57,092 nucleotides of DNA from Dehalococcoidales bacterium (GTDB lineage Bacteria > Chloroflexota > Dehalococcoidia > Dehalococcoidales > CSSed11-197), in NCBI GenBank assembly GCA_028717385.1, contig JAQUNW010000005.1, positions 1-57,092 of the forward strand. Direction: 5' to 3'. Within the stretch, counting starts at the first letter, position 1. Every line of letters begins with the position of its first letter. The position numbers were made by a program, and so were the translations under genes. Positions 4,589 to 57,092 of the stretch are shown here, one piece after another. The notes beneath the pieces are model-generated. The model ran no database searches and was not told where the DNA came from. It worked only from the letters and a program-made list of their open reading frames with translations.

Positions 4589-5788
4589 TTATTCTGTTTT
4601 TGCTTCCGGGGCTGGCACCAAAATGTCGATAATTGGCGTGAGTGCAGCTTTATCAAATCCCACTTCAACTATGCGTATATTACGAACTTCTTCCGGCTGG
4701 GCAAATGACGCAGGTTGATTTTCTGGTTCATTCTCTACCAATGGTGCGGTTTCGGCAGAGGCTTTCTGAGAAGAGAGAGCTTCTGCCACTTGTGTTGGTA
4801 TGGGGTATTTGGTAACAATAAAACTTCCCATTATTGGTTTAAAGGAGTCGTAATTCCTTTGTACAATATCCATCTCACCTTTTTCATACCATTCGGGATC
4901 GTCCATGCACTCTATGATGATATCGGGGCGTAAAAAGCGGCTGAAGTCGGATATCAAACCAATGGTTTTTGGTTGATTGTCGATATACAATACCATGCTT
5001 GGCCACTCTAACCGGGGCCGGGATTCCAATCCCTTAGATCTGATGGTGATCCATTCTCTCCTGGTGGTGGCATTTTTAGCCGACCAAGCGCAGTCAGTAA
5101 GGTCCGCCCCAAAAGCAATATAGCGGTTGTGGGTGCTTTCCCTGACGATAATGTCAGACATCATAAAAGATGGATCATATCCTTCGTGCCCGAGCAGTAG
5201 CGTCTCCAATTTCTGCGGTTCAAGCACATTTTCATCGAAGAAGCCCTTTTTCTCATCCGGCTGAAGTTCGTGGCACATAAACCTCATTTCGTCATACGGT
5301 ATAGCCAGCGCTTGATCTGGTTTTAACAGGCTGGCTATAGCCATGATTAGCCACTTTTCATAACCCATCTTTATAATTGGAAGCGCATAAGAAGCGACCA
5401 AGCGGGCTGCTTCATCTTCAAAATCATCCAGAGTCAGTTCTTTTTTGAGTAGCATGAACAGTGGATCGCGCAGGGGGCGAATAAGCCCGTTAAGCGGATC
5501 TGTTATCATCCAGTCTAATTTGGAAGGCATCTTGATCTCTGATATCTCCAGAGCTGGCATTAGTTGGGCAGCCTCGGTTTTGTATTTATCACTCACTTCA
5601 AGGGCTTGGATCAGGATTTGAGGTGTTTTCTCCCTGATAAAAGCTTTTCTTACCTGGTTGAAGACGGTGTAAAAACCTTCATTCAGTTCTTTAGGGATAA
5701 GTGTGATCCCTTTACGGATAGTAATTTCGGGATTTTGAGCGATGAAATTTTCGAGCGCTTGAAAGGCTGATCGCCATTCACCTTGCAT
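4589..5788 (-). CDS. hypothetical protein (399 aa), no family recognised
   Basis: Long ORF with an AGGAGG RBS upstream, coupled to the rSAM gene (stop 4591..4589, next ATG 4587). It has an acidic, low-complexity C-terminal tail. Confidence 0.7.
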   Translation of the reverse strand: MQGEWRSAFQALENFIAQNPEITIRKGITLIPKELNEGFYTVFNQVRKAFIREKTPQILIQALEVSDKYKTEAAQLMPALEISEIKMPSKLDWMITDPLNGLIRPLRDPLFMLLKKELTLDDFEDEAARLVASYALPIIKMGYEKWLIMAIASLLKPDQALAIPYDEMRFMCHELQPDEKKGFFDENVLEPQKLETLLLGHEGYDPSFMMSDIIVRESTHNRYIAFGADLTDCAWSAKNATTRREWITIRSKGLESRPRLEWPSMVLYIDNQPKTIGLISDFSRFLRPDIIIECMDDPEWYEKGEMDIVQRNYDSFKPIMGSFIVTKYPIPTQVAEALSSQKASAETAPLVENEPENQPASFAQPEEVRNIRIVEVGFDKAALTPIIDILVPAPEAKTE

Positions 5789-12177: not shown

Positions 12178-14451
12178 TTAAGCCTTTCCCAAGTGTTTCA
12201 GAATGCGGTCGGGACTCATCGGTCGAGTGAATTTAGAGAAATCGCCACCGATGGCATTGTGTATAGCCATCAACAAGGCTGCGAAGCCTGACCCATTGGC
12301 TGCCGGTTCACCCAGACCGCTCATACCGAAAGGACCGGTAGCATTGACGCTTTCGGTTAACCAGCCACCATGAACATCATCATTGATATCCATGGCAGTG
12401 TGAGCTTTCATATCTATATGGGTTTGGTCGAGCAGGGCACCTCTTTGAGGATCATGGTGAACATCCCAGAGAAGGCCTTTTCCACAGGCTGTCCATAGGC
12501 TCGAGCCGATCTGACCTCCGGCAGTAACCGGATCAATAACTCGGCCGCAATCAGTAGTATGGGCGTGCGCCAATATTTCTACATCCCCGGTATCGGGGTC
12601 AACCGCGACTTCAAAAGCACTGGCTACGCCCTGGCGATGGAAAGCAGGAGTACCGATCGGTTTGCCCTGGAATGGCCTTCTCAGTACTTCTGCGAAACTT
12701 TTTCCCACACCGATGATAGGTTTAGATATTCTGGCCATGACTTCAGCATGGGTGAGAGATTTGGACTGGTCGGTCTTAACAAAGATCTTGCCATCCCTGG
12801 CATGAAGGTCATCGACAGCAACGCCCAGTTGGTTGGCAGCATGAGCAAACAGCTGCTCGCGGATATCCAGAGCTGCCATCAGAGAGGCGGAGCCGTTACT
12901 GGAAGCACCCTGGCTACCAGCTTGCATGCCGCCATCTGGAGCCTGATCATTAGTACCGTAGGACGAACAGTAGACCGCTTCGAACGGAAGCCCAAGAGCT
13001 TCAGCAATGATATTAGCCTGAGTTACTGAGTTGGTACCGTTCTGGTTGTTACTCTGGCCGGTGACGAAGTTACAGGTGCCATCGGTGTTCATATAGATGA
13101 CCACTCCACGTCCAGCGCCCGAATGGCCATGCCGATCGTTGAAGCAGGCAATGCCTACACCGTGGAGCCGTCCGTCTGGTAGAGTTCTGGTACCGGGAGC
13201 ATGATATTTTTGTTCATAGTTTATCTTTTCGTTTACAGCTTCAAGGCACATGCGGGTAGAAGCGCAAGTCATTGGCCGGCCGTTATCTTGATTGAGCATA
13301 TCGTCGGTGATGGTGACCTTGCGCAGGTATTCCAGAGGGGTCATACCAATAGCATCAGCCATAGCGTTAAGTGCTACGCATAGAGTGAAAGCTGCTTCGG
13401 GGTGCATCAGGCAGCGATGTCCGGCTCCAAAGCCGGTATTAGTGGCTACGCCGTAAGTTTCCTGGGTAACGTTAGGTAGGATATAGCTGCAGTCAATATT
13501 TTCCCAACCATTACCGGCAGCAGCGTTGAAGCCGCCGTGGCAGTACCATTTTTGCTGCATAGCGGTCATCGTCCCATCCCTTTTACCGCCGAGCTTAGTG
13601 ATACCCTTCGGGGAATAGTGGTTGCGGCGTCGGATGGAGTGTAATCTTCTGGTACGCGAAATGGCTACTGGAACACCTGCTTTCTTGGAAAGCAGGGCAC
13701 ACAGAGAAGGTTCGCAGGTTTGCCCGCCACCGCCAAGGCCGCCGACACCGCTGGTTTGGCGGATATGGCAACGGCTCTGGTTAACTCCTAACTGAGAGGC
13801 GTATGTGCGGTTCTGGGCATGAGGATTCTGACCCTGGTCGTATCCGTATACATGCTCGCCTTCCCACCAGGCAACACCGGTAACCGGCTCAATAGTATTT
13901 TGAGTGTGAGGTCTGAGGAAGGGGGTTTCAACTTCAATGGTTACCTCGGCTTCTTCAAATCCTGCCTCTATATCACCACGAGAGTTACGTGCCGGGTTAG
14001 CCTGGACGTTGCTGTCAGGGAAAGTACCTGCCAGGGTAGAGCCGGGCTGCCAGGCTTCATCGGGATCGAGAACGAAAGGTAATTCCTCGTATTCAACTTC
14101 AATCAACTCAACTGCACGCTCGGCGATAAAGGGATCGGTAGCAGCGACTGCTGCAATTTCCCAGCCCCACACCAGCACTTCATCCGTCTTGTACTGGGGA
14201 TTTTCCTGCATTGTGATTACAGCTTTAACACCTTCTAGTTCTTCAGCCTTGGAGGTATTGATGCTTTTAACTTTGCAGTGGGCATGGGGGCAGCCAAGGA
14301 TGGCCGCAAAGAGTTTCTTGCCCGGGAAATAATCGTAAGGGAACATATACCTACCGGTTACAATTGAAGGTCCTTCATAAGCACGGTGAGGCTTGCCGAC
14401 TACGGCTAAATCCGTACCAAATTCAAAATCTATGGGTAATGATATCGCCAT
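12178..14451 (-). CDS. molybdopterin-binding (large) subunit of a xanthine dehydrogenase / aldehyde oxidase family enzyme
   Basis: 757 aa with the a/b-hammerhead N-terminal region and MoCo-binding domains (GPFGMSGLGEPAANGS near the C-terminus). Confidence 0.9.
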   Translation of the reverse strand: MAISLPIDFEFGTDLAVVGKPHRAYEGPSIVTGRYMFPYDYFPGKKLFAAILGCPHAHCKVKSINTSKAEELEGVKAVITMQENPQYKTDEVLVWGWEIAAVAATDPFIAERAVELIEVEYEELPFVLDPDEAWQPGSTLAGTFPDSNVQANPARNSRGDIEAGFEEAEVTIEVETPFLRPHTQNTIEPVTGVAWWEGEHVYGYDQGQNPHAQNRTYASQLGVNQSRCHIRQTSGVGGLGGGGQTCEPSLCALLSKKAGVPVAISRTRRLHSIRRRNHYSPKGITKLGGKRDGTMTAMQQKWYCHGGFNAAAGNGWENIDCSYILPNVTQETYGVATNTGFGAGHRCLMHPEAAFTLCVALNAMADAIGMTPLEYLRKVTITDDMLNQDNGRPMTCASTRMCLEAVNEKINYEQKYHAPGTRTLPDGRLHGVGIACFNDRHGHSGAGRGVVIYMNTDGTCNFVTGQSNNQNGTNSVTQANIIAEALGLPFEAVYCSSYGTNDQAPDGGMQAGSQGASSNGSASLMAALDIREQLFAHAANQLGVAVDDLHARDGKIFVKTDQSKSLTHAEVMARISKPIIGVGKSFAEVLRRPFQGKPIGTPAFHRQGVASAFEVAVDPDTGDVEILAHAHTTDCGRVIDPVTAGGQIGSSLWTACGKGLLWDVHHDPQRGALLDQTHIDMKAHTAMDINDDVHGGWLTESVNATGPFGMSGLGEPAANGSGFAALLMAIHNAIGGDFSKFTRPMSPDRILKHLGKA

Positions 14452-27012: not shown

Positions 27013-27088
27013 GCGGGAGTAACTCAGTTGGTAGAGTGCCTGCCTTCCAAGCAGGTTGCCGCGGGTTCGAGTCCCGTCTCCCGCTCCA
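27013..27088 (+). tRNA. tRNA-Gly (anticodon UCC)
   Basis: Hand-folded cloverleaf: acceptor GCGGGAG/CTCCCGC, anticodon arm CCTGC-CTTCCAA-GCAGG, T-loop GGTTCGAGTCC, encoded CCA. Confidence 0.95.
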
Positions 27089-27128: not shown

Positions 27129-27203
27129 GGGCTCGTAGCTCAGCGGCAGAGCGGACGGCTCATAACCGTTTGGTCGTAGGTTCGAATCCTACCGGGCCCA
27201 CCA
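27129..27203 (+). tRNA. tRNA with a CAU anticodon (elongator Met, or Ile2 if lysidine-modified)
   Basis: Acceptor GGGCTCG/CGGGCCC, anticodon arm GACGG-CTCATAA-CCGTT, T-loop GGTTCGAATCC, encoded CCA. It lacks the initiator-type GGG/CCC anticodon stem. Confidence 0.9.
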
Positions 27204-30185: not shown

Positions 30186-30477
30186 CAAACAAAAAGCCTC
30201 CTGTCCGTGAAGGGACAGGAGGCTAACCCGCGGTGCCACCCTTCTTAGCTTCCGGCTTGGAAGCTATCTCTGCGGATACAGGGGAAAACCCCGATATCCT
30301 GAGGTTTGATAACGCTCCTCTCTGCGTCCAGGCCTACTTGCTTTTTAGCTTTCGGTTGGCAGCTCCCAGATCCATTCAACCCGAGCGTAGAAACCGGTTC
30401 CCACCAATCCCGGCTCTCTGGATTCCCGTTTTCGGGCATACTAGCTCTGTTCTCAGCCTTTGTTTATTAAGTTTGAT
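30186..30477 (-). promoter_or_regulatory. T-box riboswitch leader, probable Trp specifier (UGG at 30374..30372)
   Basis: On the minus strand: AG bulge/distal loop CCAGAGAGCC...TTGGTGGGAACC, specifier context GAA-UGG-A, T-box sequence AGGGTGGCACCGCG (30242..30229), and terminator AGCCTCCTGTCC-cttcac-GGACAGGAGGCT + TTTTTGTTTG (30224..30186). Confidence 0.85.
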
Positions 30478-35050: not shown

Positions 35051-35148
35051 AATTTATGATATTTCGTACGTTGAAACTATACCTTAAAGCAGTAGCAGGT
35101 TCAAGTAAATGTGCCCATTCAGGTTGGTATTGATACTTGTTTTGTTAT

Positions 35149-35242
35149 TCTGTGTCTTCCTCGATGAGCACGTAAGTGCGAAGAAGGATCTTCCCCGTAA
35201 TAGTGGCCGTTGTAACATAGGAGTGTTTCCCTATGTACGAGC
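35149..35242 (+). repeat. dispersed intergenic repeat, copy A
   Basis: CTGTGTCTTCCTCGATGA-[GCAC-GTAA-GTGC]-GAAGAAGGATCTTCCCCGTAATAGTGGCCGTTGTAACATAGGAGTGTTTCC...ACGAGC. See copies B-E. Confidence 0.85.
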
Positions 35243-35306
35243 TCTAATCTTAAAAGATTCTTTGCTCCATTTCGGGTATTACAGAGGATGCGGTAAACAT
35301 CTGGTC

Positions 35307-38117: not shown

Positions 38118-38257
38118 TGTTTTGACCTATCTCCTAATTCAGCTAATAAACCTAACTATTAAAGCATTATTAGGCTTATCTTGGCAAGTCCGAGGTGCGG
38201 GAGGCGGAGCACCTTACCTTATATATTATATATCAACTATTATTGTTATCCCCATTT

Positions 38258-38351
38258 ACTGTGTCTCCCTCGAGGAGGGCGTATGCCCTACGAAGAATCT
38301 TCCCCGTAATACCCCCCATTGTAACATGGTAGTGTTTCCGTATGAACGAGC
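38258..38351 (+). repeat. dispersed intergenic repeat, copy B
   Basis: ACTGTGTCTCCCTCGAGGA-[GGGC-GTAT-GCCC]-TACGAAGAATCTTCCCCGTAATACCCCCCATTGTAACATGGTAGTGTTTCC...ACGAGC. Confidence 0.85.
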
Positions 38352-38423
38352 GCAATTCGTGTGAGACCCTTCGCTACGCGCAAAGGGTGACAGAAGTGTG
38401 CCCCAGGAGGTCCGATGCCGTTG

Positions 38424-39182
38424 TTATATATCCGCCTTTTCGGAGTTATCTGACCTGAACCCGGAAAGCATTTTTTCTTCCTCAGGCGTAAGTGAAGCAG
38501 AATCTAAAAGATCCGGGCGGCGCTCAAGAGTACGTTTTAAAGCTTGTCTACGGCGCCATTTTTCGATTTCCCCGTGGTTGCCGGAAAGAAGTATATCCGG
38601 AACACAATGATTCCGGTATTCAGCTGGGCGGGTATATTGGGGGTATTCGAGCAAGCCCCGGCTGAAAGAATCATCCGCAGCAGATTGTTCATCGATGACC
38701 CCCGGAATCAGCCTGATAATAGTATCTACCATCACAATTGCAGCAGGTTCTCCGCCGCTTAGGACATAATCGCCAATGCTTATTTCGTCGGTTGCCAGGT
38801 GTTGGCATATCCTTTCATCAAACCCTTCATAATGACCACAAATCAAAATAAGGCTGTCGCAGGTGGATAATTCCCGGGCAATTTTTTGGTTAAAAATGCG
38901 ACCTTGTGGAGAAAGTAAAATTACCGGTTTTTTGGGGTTTTTTACATAAGGTTTGCCAACCAGATCTTCAACCGCTTCAAAAATCGGCTCCGGTTTTAGC
39001 ACCATTCCAGCCCCTCCACCGTAAGGATAATCATCAACTACCTGATGCCGGTCGCGGGCGTAGTTACGGAAATTGTTTACATAAATACTAACCAACTGCT
39101 TATCTACAGCTCGCTTTATGATGCTGTTCGCGAATGGTCCTTGGAACATTTCCGGAAATATTGTCAATATATCAATCCGCAT
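38424..39182 (-). CDS. trmD: tRNA (guanine37-N1)-methyltransferase TrmD
   Basis: Starts [13 protein letters not shown] and contains GGGAGMVLK and [11 protein letters not shown] chose the ATG at 39182 behind GGGGA; the ORF track start is 39236. Confidence 0.95.
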
Positions 39183-39279
39183 AATCATCCCCTGAAGTTG
39201 CTTGCCAGATGATTTTATCACAGGTTTACTATACATAACAAAAGAATCTGAAATTTCGGTAAATTTTTATAAAAAAATC

Positions 39280-43370: not shown

Positions 43371-43408
43371 GGGGGGGGCGGAGCCTGAAGGTGCCGCCCC
43401 CCTTCTTT
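43371..43408 (+). terminator. intrinsic terminator after ftsZ
   Basis: GGGGGGCGG-loop-CCGCCCCCC is followed by TTCTTT. Confidence 0.7.
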
Positions 43409-43410
43409 AA

Positions 43411-43519
43411 CACGCCATATAACCAGGAAGACTATTCGGATAAGACCTGCATATGTAACAGCGGGCACTATTAAGGGGAAGATCCTTTAGCAGTAAACTG
43501 CCTCAAGGCAGACACAGTT
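43411..43519 (-). repeat. dispersed intergenic repeat, copy E (inverted orientation; unit 1 plus a degenerate unit 2)
   Basis: The minus strand reads AACTGTGTCTGCCTTGAG-[GCAG-TTTA-CTGC]-TAAAGGATCTTCCCCTTAATAGTGCCCGCTGTTACATATGCAGGTCTTATCCGAATAGTCTTCCTGG. Confidence 0.8.
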
Positions 43520-43697
43520 AATGGCCCGCACTTCTTCCGGATTATTGGGTGATATGATTCATTCATTAATTAATGAGCGCAGCGAACACTTTAATGGGGA
43601 TTGCGCTTACCAGTAATCAAATTACCCGGTGCCACTTGCTACATGAGCAGGGGTAATTAATTGCCTTGTGCTCGTAATACAGGCTACAATAGGATTT

Positions 43698-44857: not shown

Positions 44858-45230
44858 TTGCTGGAGTTAGGAAAACCGGATGGTCGCCATTTAGATAATG
44901 TAAATGGAGGAAAGTCCGGGCTCCGCCGGGCAAGGATGCTGGGTAACTCCCAGGAGGGGTAACCCTACGGAAAGCGCAACAGAAACATACCGCTCAATCC
45001 AGAATTGAGCAAGGGTGAAATGGTGAGGTAAGAGCTCACCAGCAGCCGGGAGACCGGCTGGCTGGGCAAGCCCCATCCGGAGCAAGGCCAAATAGGGGGA
45101 CCTGAGGGCGCCCGGCCCGTCCCCGGGTTGGCCGCATGACCTAGGTGGTAACACCTTGGCTAGATAGATGGCCGTCGGCCTCCTTGAGAGGTTACAGAAC
45201 CCGGCTTATAGGTTTACCTGGCTCCAGCAG
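44858..45230 (+). ncRNA. rnpB: RNase P RNA, bacterial type A
   Basis: P4 strands GAGGAAAGTCCGGGCTCC and ACAGAACCCGGCTTA. P1 pairs TGCTGGAG with CTCCAGCA. An extended -10 element TGATATAAT (44844..44852) lies just upstream. Confidence 0.95.
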
Positions 45231-49964: not shown

Positions 49965-50062
49965 CAGTGTCATTTCCGTCTACCGCGTCGTCCTTGAGTC
50001 GGGTGGTAGCCCGACGAAGGATCTTCCCCGGATAGTACTCTTGGTGACATAAAGCGTTGTCA
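49965..50062 (+). repeat. dispersed intergenic repeat, copy C (unit-2 type)
   Basis: CAGTGTC...TCCTTGA-[GTCGGG-TGGTAG-CCCGAC]-GAAGGATCTTCCCCGGATAGTACTCTTGGTGACATAAAGCGTTGTC. Confidence 0.8.
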
Positions 50063-50097
50063 GGGTGATACTTGTCAGTATTTATTTCAAGAAGCAG

Positions 50098-56689: not shown

Positions 56690-56870
56690 GCTCTGGAAAC
56701 ACTGCTAATGTGGGCAAGAAGACTATCCGGGGAAGATCTGTGTATGTTACAACGGGCACTATTAAGGGAAAGATTCTTCGTCGGGGTTTTACCCCTCCTC
56801 TAGAACGACACAAGATATGAAACGTGCTCATCAAGGATTACACAGCAGATGGCGGATGGCACAGCAGATG
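56690..56870 (-). repeat. dispersed intergenic repeat, copy D (inverted orientation; composite with duplicated modules)
   Basis: The minus strand reads CTGCTGTGCC...CTGCTGTGTAATCCTTGATGAGCAC...CTTGTGTCGTTCTAGAGGA-[GGGGT-AAA-ACCCC]-GACGAAGAATCTTTCCCTTAATAGTGCCCGTTGTAACATACACAGATCTTCCCCGGATAGTCTTCTTGCCCACATTAGCAGTGTTTCC. Confidence 0.85.
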
Positions 56871-56900
56871 GGGATGAAACAGGTAATCTCAAGGATCCGG

Positions 56901-57092
56901 CTATACTTCCCTGAGCTCGGCTTCCTTTTTCTCCCTTTCCTGTTCAACCATGGCGGTAACACCATCAGTGAGTTGTTGAAGCTTGGATAACGTCATGCGA
57001 CACTCGTCTTGGGAGATTTCCTTATCCTTTTCCATCTGTTTCAGTTTATCGGCAACATCACGCCGCACGTTTCTGATGGCGATTTTTGTATC
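56901..57092 (-). CDS. frr: ribosome recycling factor, C-terminal 63 codons (window-truncated)
   Basis: My translation reads DTKIAIRNVRRDVADKLKQMEKDKEISQDE...LTDGVTAMVEQEREKKEAELREV-stop (TAG 56903..56901). It occupies the position expected upstream of uppS. Confidence 0.9.
   Translation of the reverse strand, partial: DTKIAIRNVRRDVADKLKQMEKDKEISQDECRMTLSKLQQLTDGVTAMVEQEREKKEAELREV

Follow-up and report, generated by a model that had tools for sequence, protein, structure and literature searches.

The stretch of DNA analysed here, referred to below as the window, comprises 57,092 nt of a contig of a Dehalococcoidales bacterium and carries, in the spaces between its housekeeping genes, five copies (A to E) of an intergenic repeat. 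All five had been proposed in an initial annotation made from the letters alone, and all five are real, with starts no more than 1-2 nt away from the positions given there. The order of blocks described at that stage (CTGTGTC, CCTYGAKG, a hairpin, GAAGRATCTTCCCC, unit 1 and/or unit 2, and AGTGTTTCC) is seen in the window copies, and the five listed readings of stem and loop match exactly, namely GCAC-GTAA-GTGC in A, (A)GGGC-GTAT-GCCC(T) in B, GTCGGG-TGGTAG-CCCGAC in C, GGGGT-AAA-ACCCC in D and GCAG-TTTA-CTGC in E, each stem being fully complementary and all five being different. The ends of copies A and B had been set too short, the true ends lying at 35284 and 38393, and the neighbouring genes of two copies were interchanged: it is copy D (at 56.7 kb) that lies between frr and uppS, and copy E (at 43.4 kb) that has ftsZ and a CdsZ-like zinc-ribbon gene as its neighbours.

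The repeat copies and their surroundings

Copy A (35150..35284, + strand) is a full-length unit with a degenerate 3' terminus, located between the priA stop and the cca promoter and antisense to both genes; its stem (35168-35171 / 35176-35179, GCAC/GTGC) belongs to class III and is followed by an internal unit 1. Copy B (38259..38393, + strand), also a full-length unit, is found in the gap that extends from the trmD stop to the rplS promoter region, in antisense orientation to trmD and rplS, and combines a class I stem (38276-38280 / 38285-38289, AGGGC/GCCCT) with an internal unit 1. In a covariance model search (cmsearch) both copies reach 111 bits at an E-value of about 1e-25, A with 111.4 bits over 35152-35284, which corresponds to model positions 1-132, and B with 111.2 bits over 38261-38393; these scores are partly obtained by construction, because A and B are among the 16 full-length copies from which the model was built. 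With a single seed copy from another genome, nhmmer detects B at an E-value of 4e-16 and A at 9e-12.

The remaining three copies are partial or rearranged and lack the 3' half. Copy C (49966..50071, + strand), found in the convergent gap between pheT and proS, joins a 5' motif and a second 5' module to a class V hairpin (49998-50003 / 50010-50015, GTCGGG/CCCGAC), an internal unit 2 and a stretch resembling the 3' module, TCAGGGTGATAC, the central 3' half being missing; it scores 18.9 bits in cmsearch, and nhmmer finds it at an E-value of 1.5e-4. Copy D (56695..56883, - strand) is sense to both frr and uppS and scores 16.3 bits. It carries several 5' motifs, among them a 19-nt motif twice in tandem at 56841-56882 (TRF) and a 31-nt half-module; it further has a class IV hairpin (56795-56791 / 56787-56783, GGGGT/ACCCC), followed by internal units 1 and 2, and it is truncated after AGTGTTTCC. 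Copy E (43408..43536, - strand), detected by nhmmer only (E-value 1.2e-7), is situated between the ftsZ terminator hairpin (43371-43403) and the CdsZ-like gene, in antisense orientation to this gene and to ftsZ; a half-module tail (GTGCGGGCCATTAAC) and a 5' module precede its class II hairpin (43501-43498 / 43493-43490, GCAG/CTGC), and an internal unit 1 together with a degenerate unit 2 follows it.

The window copies resemble one another far more closely than chance would allow: with no more than 3 mismatches, three matches to the 21-mer of unit 1 occur in the window and none in 100 shuffles, and a repeat finder links the five sites by pairwise matches of 29-117 nt at 75-89% identity. No further copy was detected at positions 1-34000 by the repeat finder, nhmmer or cmsearch. 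Every insert in the window lies between the stop or terminator of the upstream gene and the conserved promoter of the downstream gene, the one before cca reading TTGAAC-17-TATAGT. The general picture of a modular, multi-copy and intergenic family occurring in both orientations, which had been drawn from these five sites, is supported.

The canonical unit and its modules

A full unit of about 127-135 nt runs 5'-TGTCATCCAGAGG ... CTCTGAATGACA-3' and is an imperfect palindrome with inverted termini. Its canonical order is TGTCATCCAGAGG, a short G+C hairpin, GACGAAGGATCTTCCCC, one or two internal units of 37 nt each, a 3' half extending from GTGTTTCCGTATGAACGGGCACAA to GAGATTCTTCGC, and finally CTCTGAATGACA; the 16 full-length copies align over about 135 nt as TGTCATCCAGAGG / hairpin / GACGAAGGATCTTCCCC / GTAATAGYGCCCGYYGTAACAT / GGGAGTGTTTCCGTATGAACGGGCACAAYCCGTGTGAGATTCTTCGC / TTGCG / CTCTGAATGACA. 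The block AGTGTTTCC is therefore not the end of the element, being the start of a conserved 3' half that closes with the inverted 5' terminus. A single 12-nt motif stands at both termini in opposite orientation, 11 of the 12 positions being complementary between TGTCATCCAGAG at the 5' end and CTCTGAATGACA at the 3' end, and CGAAGGATCT is the inverse of AGATTCTTCG.

The internal units are of two interchangeable types, and copies that possess two of them, as D and E do, have a full length of 164-169 nt in the wider family. A 5' half-module of 31-32 nt, TGTCATCCAGAGGAGGGCC-ATACATTAACAC, has at least 25 occurrences and is sometimes doubled, and a 3' module of 21-22 nt, consisting of GCGCTCTGAATGACA and a linker, forms tandem arrays of 3-5 units (TRF). 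Such 21-nt arrays are located at 5279-5625 of locus L059, where one degenerate run of 3' modules reaches about 350 nt, and at 13723-13807 of locus L060. The mixing of modules is free: every hairpin class is found with both types of internal unit, with both versions of the 3' interior and with both end variants. These data show that the extra 5' half-modules and 3' modules iterate in tandem and recombine freely between copies, and the grammar of the family can be written as (A')n, A with hairpin, B(1-2), core, C, (C')n. Open reading frames over the copies are spurious calls that differ from copy to copy, and the element is non-coding.

Distribution and age

An exact-pattern scan of 185,579 species genomes, one per bacterial or archaeal species, yielded only three Dehalococcoidales/Dehalococcoidia MAGs above chance; the other matches, about 30 in unrelated taxa, equal the chance expectation from the information content of the pattern. 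In one of the genomes, STF2_53, the pattern occurs on 12 contigs with up to four occurrences per contig. A scan of metagenomes gave 56 contigs carrying the pattern, on which the covariance model has 69 matches at E<=1e-8, and in the Dehalococcoidales loci that were gathered nhmmer finds 198 hits in 112 clusters. In these searches the family is seen only in Dehalococcoidales genomes and metagenomes. A phage origin was considered and rejected, with 0 matches in IMG/VR.

Of the 112 clusters 26 are situated at contig ends, which fits a dispersed repeat, because dispersed repeats break assemblies. The copies of STF2_53 have a mean pairwise identity of 0.76, and for A and B of the window the value is 0.70; such divergence of the copies indicates that the family is not young. 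No relevant Dehalococcoidia repeat or MITE was found described in the literature, and the repeat family is previously undescribed.

Gain and loss at orthologous sites

The relatives used for comparison have 78-86% TrmD identity to the species of the window, and all three comparable sites vary among them, which means that presence of the element is polymorphic. Within the species itself the same L19 protein is encoded on 12 contigs, all with an identical 306-nt gap between trmD and rplS, while in relatives with 82-86% TrmD identity this gap is 144, 110 and 132 nt long and the element is absent; the site of copy B is empty in L059, L060, L061 and L100. The gap between priA and cca, 256 nt in the window, is reduced to 81 and 83 nt in two relatives (L059 and L061, both empty) and extended to 460 nt in L060, where a larger mosaic occupies the same place in the same orientation as window copy A. 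Between ftsZ and cdsZ there are 320 nt in the window, 65 nt in L062 (empty), and 521 nt in L060 and 709 nt in L059, both of which contain arrays. Around priA-cca, identity between loci L040 and L060 is 92-96%, but the two differ by about 86 nt of 21-nt modules.

A search for empty sites with joined flanks, conducted for all 112 clusters, returned the trmD|rplS case only. The extra block at this site (38235..38423, + strand) has 189 nt and includes, besides copy B, 24 nt on its 5' side, possibly a collapsed half-module, and 30 nt on its 3' side, possibly a degenerate 3' module. When joined, the flanks of the block align collinearly to L060 and L100. A 9-nt direct repeat, TTATATATC, borders the block on both sides (38226..38234 and 38424..38432, both on the + strand), and the second copy reads on the - strand GATATATAA, which represents the last two codons and the stop of trmD. 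The empty sites hold one copy of the 9-mer, that of L060 reading GATATATAA^TATATATAAGG.

This direct repeat looks like a target-site duplication, for which it is a candidate of 9 bp; the GATATATAA duplication comes from a single resolved pair of filled and empty sites, where the surrounding sequence is of low complexity, (TA)n. The block that it encloses does not end in the TGTCA termini, being 54 nt longer than the unit bounded by TGTCA. Directly outside the TGTCA termini no duplication is visible in the alignment of full-length copies. Terminal inverted repeats and target-site duplications had been named at the outset as features to be looked for at the borders of the copies, and of the two the inverted termini are there, and for duplication there is this one candidate case.

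The small hairpin

The small hairpin (helix 2) is paired at 96.4% in 65 distinct copies, with exchanges between GC, CG and AU pairs. Whole 3' arms were swapped among copies, helix by helix, in 1000 permutations, and for this hairpin the paired fraction falls from 0.964 with own arms to 0.739 with permuted arms, the observed value being reached in 0/1000 permutations. The stems fall into the classes GGGC/GCCC (40 copies), GCAC/GTGC (22), GGCAG/CTGCC (16), GGGGT/ACCCC (13) and an extended GTCGGGC/GCCCGAC, and within one stem class 10-11 different loops occur, mostly GNNA on the + strand of the element, with only about four broken stems. No two of the window copies have a stem class in common, and these classes are met again in other genomes.

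It had been claimed that the stem differs in every copy and stays paired, this being a signature of selection on structure. The pairing is borne out by the comparison of own and permuted arms, and so is selection on structure, for this hairpin alone. What the stem does not show is gradual drift: there are four or five discrete stem alleles, common across genomes, and the variation of the hairpin is that of a few alternative stem cassettes and not a continuous drift. A strict Watson-Crick stem combined with free loops shows that some structural selection acts, and a purely neutral repeat fails to explain it. The small hairpin appears to be the one part of the element in which pairing itself is constrained.

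A short G+C hairpin with a free loop, as the only strictly structure-constrained part of an element, is the target type of HUH enzymes, and the end motifs stand in inverted pairs like REP doublets. One could suppose from this that the repeats are of REP/REPIN type or are palindromic elements derived from IS200/IS605 (PATE), moved as single-stranded DNA by a HUH enzyme (Y1, RAYT/TnpA) that reads the small hairpin. We consider such an origin quite improbable. The 12-nt end motif itself is not a palindrome; there is no conserved GTAG/CTAC at the foot of the hairpin, the feet reading GAG-/-GAC; and the terminal inverted repeats of the element, as well as its possible 9-bp duplication, are features absent from HUH elements.

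The genes around the clusters point in the same direction, with no RAYT- or TnpA-like ORF either in the recurring families near clusters or in the ORFs checked by Pfam. Ten ORFs neighbouring clusters have no transposase and no Y1_Tnp domain in Pfam, and when the 361 ORFs of at least 100 aa that lie no more than 1.2 kb from clusters were compared all against all, a screen for recurring families only, the result was orthologous housekeeping genes and a family of TIG-domain surface proteins. The neighbours that were checked are ordinary genes. In about 0.5 Mb around the clusters no transposase, RAYT or other recurrent gene was found, a scope that a single-copy Y1 gene, or one located elsewhere, would escape. 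A pair of inverted end motifs 1.3 kb apart in locus L009 turned out to be chance matches inside ordinary genes.

A further reading is that the hairpin serves as a recognition structure of a mobilisation or processing system not recognised so far in the streamlined Dehalococcoidales genomes, one that could combine an enzyme acting on hairpins of single-stranded DNA or RNA with the phased arrays of end motifs, or else that the element is a functional structured RNA or DNA module domesticated by the host and not a plain decaying MITE; we would give this a rather small chance. Its starting point is the set of four or five Watson-Crick stems, with loops that are mostly GNNA on one strand and with stem versions kept across species.

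Long helices, strand and the RNA reading

On either strand the predicted fold of canonical copies is a rod from which a single hairpin branches off, with dG of -50 to -58 kcal/mol and z of -2.9 to -7.0, and in 65 distinct copies 83% of the cells of the rod structure are paired, versus 35-49% when the partners are slid (33-51% overall). Copy B of the window is degenerate and gives z values of only -0.9 on the + strand and -2.3 on the - strand. The MFE structure of a canonical copy was used for this analysis instead of the RNAalifold result, which on an alignment containing flanks had given a weak consensus. Folding of the earlier, shorter coordinates shows no significant stability on either strand (z -0.5 to -2.1), and this is misleading, because A and B are cut short there.

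Fold and hairpin raise the possibility of a structured non-coding RNA present in many copies, either a small RNA, as the initial annotation had offered for one alternative, or a cis-acting RNA module; the rod-plus-hairpin fold would then be the product and the repeats its genes. In its favour count the stem with 96% pairing, compensatory swaps and freely varying loops, the predominance of GNNA loops on one strand of the element, and the fact that canonical copies fold far better than shuffled sequence. The arm permutation also leaves a weak pairing excess in two of the long helices, P3 (own 0.752, permuted 0.732, observed value reached in 20/1000) and P4 (0.707 and 0.687, 14/1000).

The other two helices do not follow: the terminal helix P1 is paired at 0.834 with own and 0.831 with permuted arms (369/1000), P2 at 0.884 and 0.881 (184/1000), and the terminal duplex has an energy of -11.82 kcal/mol with own termini and -11.91 kcal/mol with foreign ones. 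Arm-to-arm covariation is thus not seen in the termini or in P2. The long helices are complementary only because both ends bear the same motif in inverted form, as terminal inverted repeats do, and the inverted ends act as sequence motifs and not as a co-evolving helix. G.U and A.C cells, 194 versus 174, are about equally frequent, which means that neither strand is favoured as RNA.

Signals of transcription do not fit an RNA gene either. Promoter- and terminator-like sites in or beside the copies are at chance level and none is common to the copies. The only candidate for an own promoter, an extended -10-like site on the - strand of copy B (TTCATA-17-TGnTACAAT, 38346-38318), was set aside as a family feature because it rests on a substitution specific to B. 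With respect to co-directional neighbours the copies are mostly antisense (A, B, E, L062, L036) and also sense (D, L047), and many lie in convergent gaps.

The same arrangement decides on a leader or riboswitch, since copies are found downstream of stops and terminators and upstream of conserved promoters, in both orientations: mixed orientation together with convergent gaps excludes a leader or attenuator, and the argument that this is not a cis-leader, made originally from orientation, holds. Frequent truncation, duplicated ends and tandem arrays would be intolerable for an RNA gene, and the sites are gained and lost between close relatives.

There is no matching Rfam family. With Rfam 15, cmscan gives no match at gathering score on the window, none overlapping the copies at E<=10 in 34000-57092, and none at E<=1 on the loci of canonical copies L036, L040, L044 and L105. 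The Chloroflexi-1 motif (RF01698), which had been named as a possible identity of the repeat, is likewise a multi-copy candidate RNA of the same phylum, but it is listed for Chloroflexus aggregans and not for Dehalococcoidia (PMC2864571), and produces no cmscan match here, so that this identification falls away. Taking both sides together, we regard a dedicated RNA as unlikely. Of the two alternatives offered at the beginning, the mobile MITE/REP-like element is the one that fits: the termini are inverted, orthologous sites can be empty, modules iterate in tandem and one insertion is bordered by a direct repeat of 9 nt.

That both ends keep their motif without covariation in pairing would also fit recognition of the sequence by a protein. 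Occurrences of TGTCATYCAGAG, the end motif of 12 nt, are 21-22 nt or 31-32 nt apart; these distances correspond to about 2 and 3 helical turns and place the sites on one face of the helix. The repeats might accordingly be imagined as phased arrays of binding sites for a host DNA-binding protein (nucleoid-associated, gyrase- or IHF-like, or acting in segregation) that are kept for chromosome organisation, as has been proposed for REP/BIME of E. coli. Phased subterminal sites are equally expected, though, for the binding of a transposase. Presence of the sites varies among close relatives, and the density of copies is very uneven, with 0 in 1-34 kb and 5 in 35-57 kb of the window, and both facts make it less likely that the chromosome needs the repeats for its structure; the analysis also yielded no candidate protein. 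A part of this kind in chromosome organisation seems to us hardly probable.

Discussion

From the analysis above we find it probable that the family is a lineage-specific, non-coding, modular, palindromic interspersed repeat which unites a grammar like that of BOX elements with the size and inverted termini of MITEs, ERIC and Correia elements. In this reading it represents selfish or neutral DNA of a familiar sort and not a new RNA gene, and its copies would be co-transcribed passively, in the orientation in which they have landed, without being dedicated RNA genes.

BOX elements are non-coding intergenic repeats of 67-637 bp in which tandem internal modules, variable in number, are enclosed by one module at the 5' side and another at the 3' side; their ends pair into a stem-loop when transcribed, and they are MITE-like, are co-transcribed with neighbours and give rise to spurious ORF calls (PMC3049150). 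The BOX elements of Streptococcus pneumoniae and S. suis (boxA, boxB(n), boxC) have the same modular grammar as the repeats described here, the two being compared by architecture only. The hosts belong to unrelated phyla, and unlike in BOX the terminal modules iterate too in our family, which also has an extra side hairpin with alternative stems.

A size of 100-170 nt and terminal inverted repeats are shared with MITEs such as Correia/NEMIS of Neisseria, ERIC/IRU of enterobacteria and RUP of pneumococcus. In this MITE-type group, as here, an imperfect hairpin can form on either strand, the copies are intergenic and occur in both orientations, and insertions are polymorphic. Like MITEs, the family is below 300 bp, non-coding and present in many copies (198 hits in 112 clusters), with terminal inverted repeats and polymorphic sites. 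It departs from simple MITEs in the strongly modular formation of arrays and in that no cognate IS or transposase was found near the clusters.

With REP/BIME and REPINs the repeats have in common a mosaic of a short motif in direct and inverted positions, short conserved linkers, a location after stops and terminators and a variable number of units. They differ in that TGTCATYCAGAG is not palindromic, in the missing GTAG foot, in the unique core of about 100 nt that the unit carries, and in that no RAYT was seen near the clusters.

As to the mechanism, the element would spread, or would have spread, as non-autonomous DNA, landing in the dead zone between the stop or terminator of one gene and the promoter of the next. 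An enzyme supplied in trans, with the phased TGTCATYCAGAG end motifs as its recognition sites, may mobilise it, and the arrays could then be reshaped by replication slippage and recombination between copies. For the small hairpin it seems most likely that its structure is recognised while the element propagates, on RNA or on DNA in single-stranded form, or that it serves as a stabilising stem in read-through transcripts.

The family is also of a practical importance for the genomics of this group. It breaks the assemblies of Dehalococcoidales MAGs, as seen from the clusters at contig ends, and it inflates short intergenic regions beside core genes (trmD-rplS, priA-cca, ftsZ). Gene callers produce spurious ORFs over the repeats, for instance at 5220-5693 of L059 and 16669-16881 of L062, and a family model (R1) would clean the annotation. 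Variable arrays of modules could act as strain markers, like BOX and REP-PCR elsewhere.

On a more general side, one hairpin that is strictly constrained in pairing, set against long "helices" that are merely an inverted motif, gives an example of how structural constraint can be separated from the palindromy of terminal inverted repeats. The known genomes of Dehalococcoidia are small and streamlined, and an actively reshaped mosaic repeat is, for this reason, mildly unexpected in them.

Module arrays and the hairpin loop

In the relatives of the window genome, modules of the repeat family form tandem arrays. In one relative (locus L059) the ftsZ-cdsZ gap is filled by a long degenerate array with a period of 21 nt (5279-5625), which derives from the 3' module of the repeat, and for which periods of 42 and 105 nt were scored as well; over this array the gene caller has set a 157-aa ORF (5220-5693). 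At the priA-cca site, in surroundings that are 92-96% identical, the close relatives L060 (13723-13807) and L040 (5850-5930) carry 21-nt modules whose total length differs by about 86 nt; the arrays thus behave like VNTRs.

The hairpin in the 5' part of the repeat has, across the copies, a loop of 4 nt, mostly G-N-N-A on the plus strand of the element, as in GTAA at 35172-35175 of the window. The 31-nt half-module matches the full module up to the first base of this loop and parts from it precisely there (GGGCG continued by TTTCAT.., or GGGCC by ATACAT..). These features hint at an event or structure at the loop that is specific to one strand.

Candidate transcription signals in and next to the repeats

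Upstream of cca the window has a promoter-like TTGAAC-17-TATAGT (35076-35104, minus strand), which is kept in all four of the four relatives, with or without a repeat upstream of it. Another promoter-like site, of the extended -10 type (TTCATA-17-TACAAT with TG before TACAAT; 38318-38346, minus strand), lies within copy B, the repeat of the trmD/rplS gap, on the same strand as both of these genes; it hinges on one base specific for copy B and is not found in the consensus of the family.

Directly 3' of ftsZ, a G+C-rich inverted repeat, GGGGGGGGCGGAGCC..GGTGCCGCCCCCC, is followed by TTCTTT (43371-43403, plus strand), and copy E begins directly after it. It is probably the ftsZ terminator, and was not among the sites of a simple terminator scan.

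Structured RNAs and protein genes

The covariance-model search of the window returned a T-box leader (30208-30463, minus strand; 105.6 bits, exceeding the gathering score), with a second T-box in the relative L040 (767-1024), and a bacterial class A RNase P RNA (44868-45224, plus strand; 305.7 bits). Two tRNA genes are at 27013-27085 and 27129-27200, both on the plus strand. A weak ylbH-leader match overlapping the 3' end of frr (56889-57091, minus strand) was taken as chance: it scores 22.9 bits, where the gathering score is 50, and has an E-value of 0.44.

The longest ORF of TrmD (38424-39236, minus strand) gives 270 aa, while the products in relatives have 248-255 aa and, in one case, 269 aa; since the matches span 89-93% of the window query, the difference probably reflects the choice of the N-terminal start codon. 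In the MAG STF2_53, an ORF with a terminase large-subunit C-terminal (RNaseH-like) domain (L044, 2625-3125, minus strand) adjoins a three-copy repeat cluster and may belong to a prophage.
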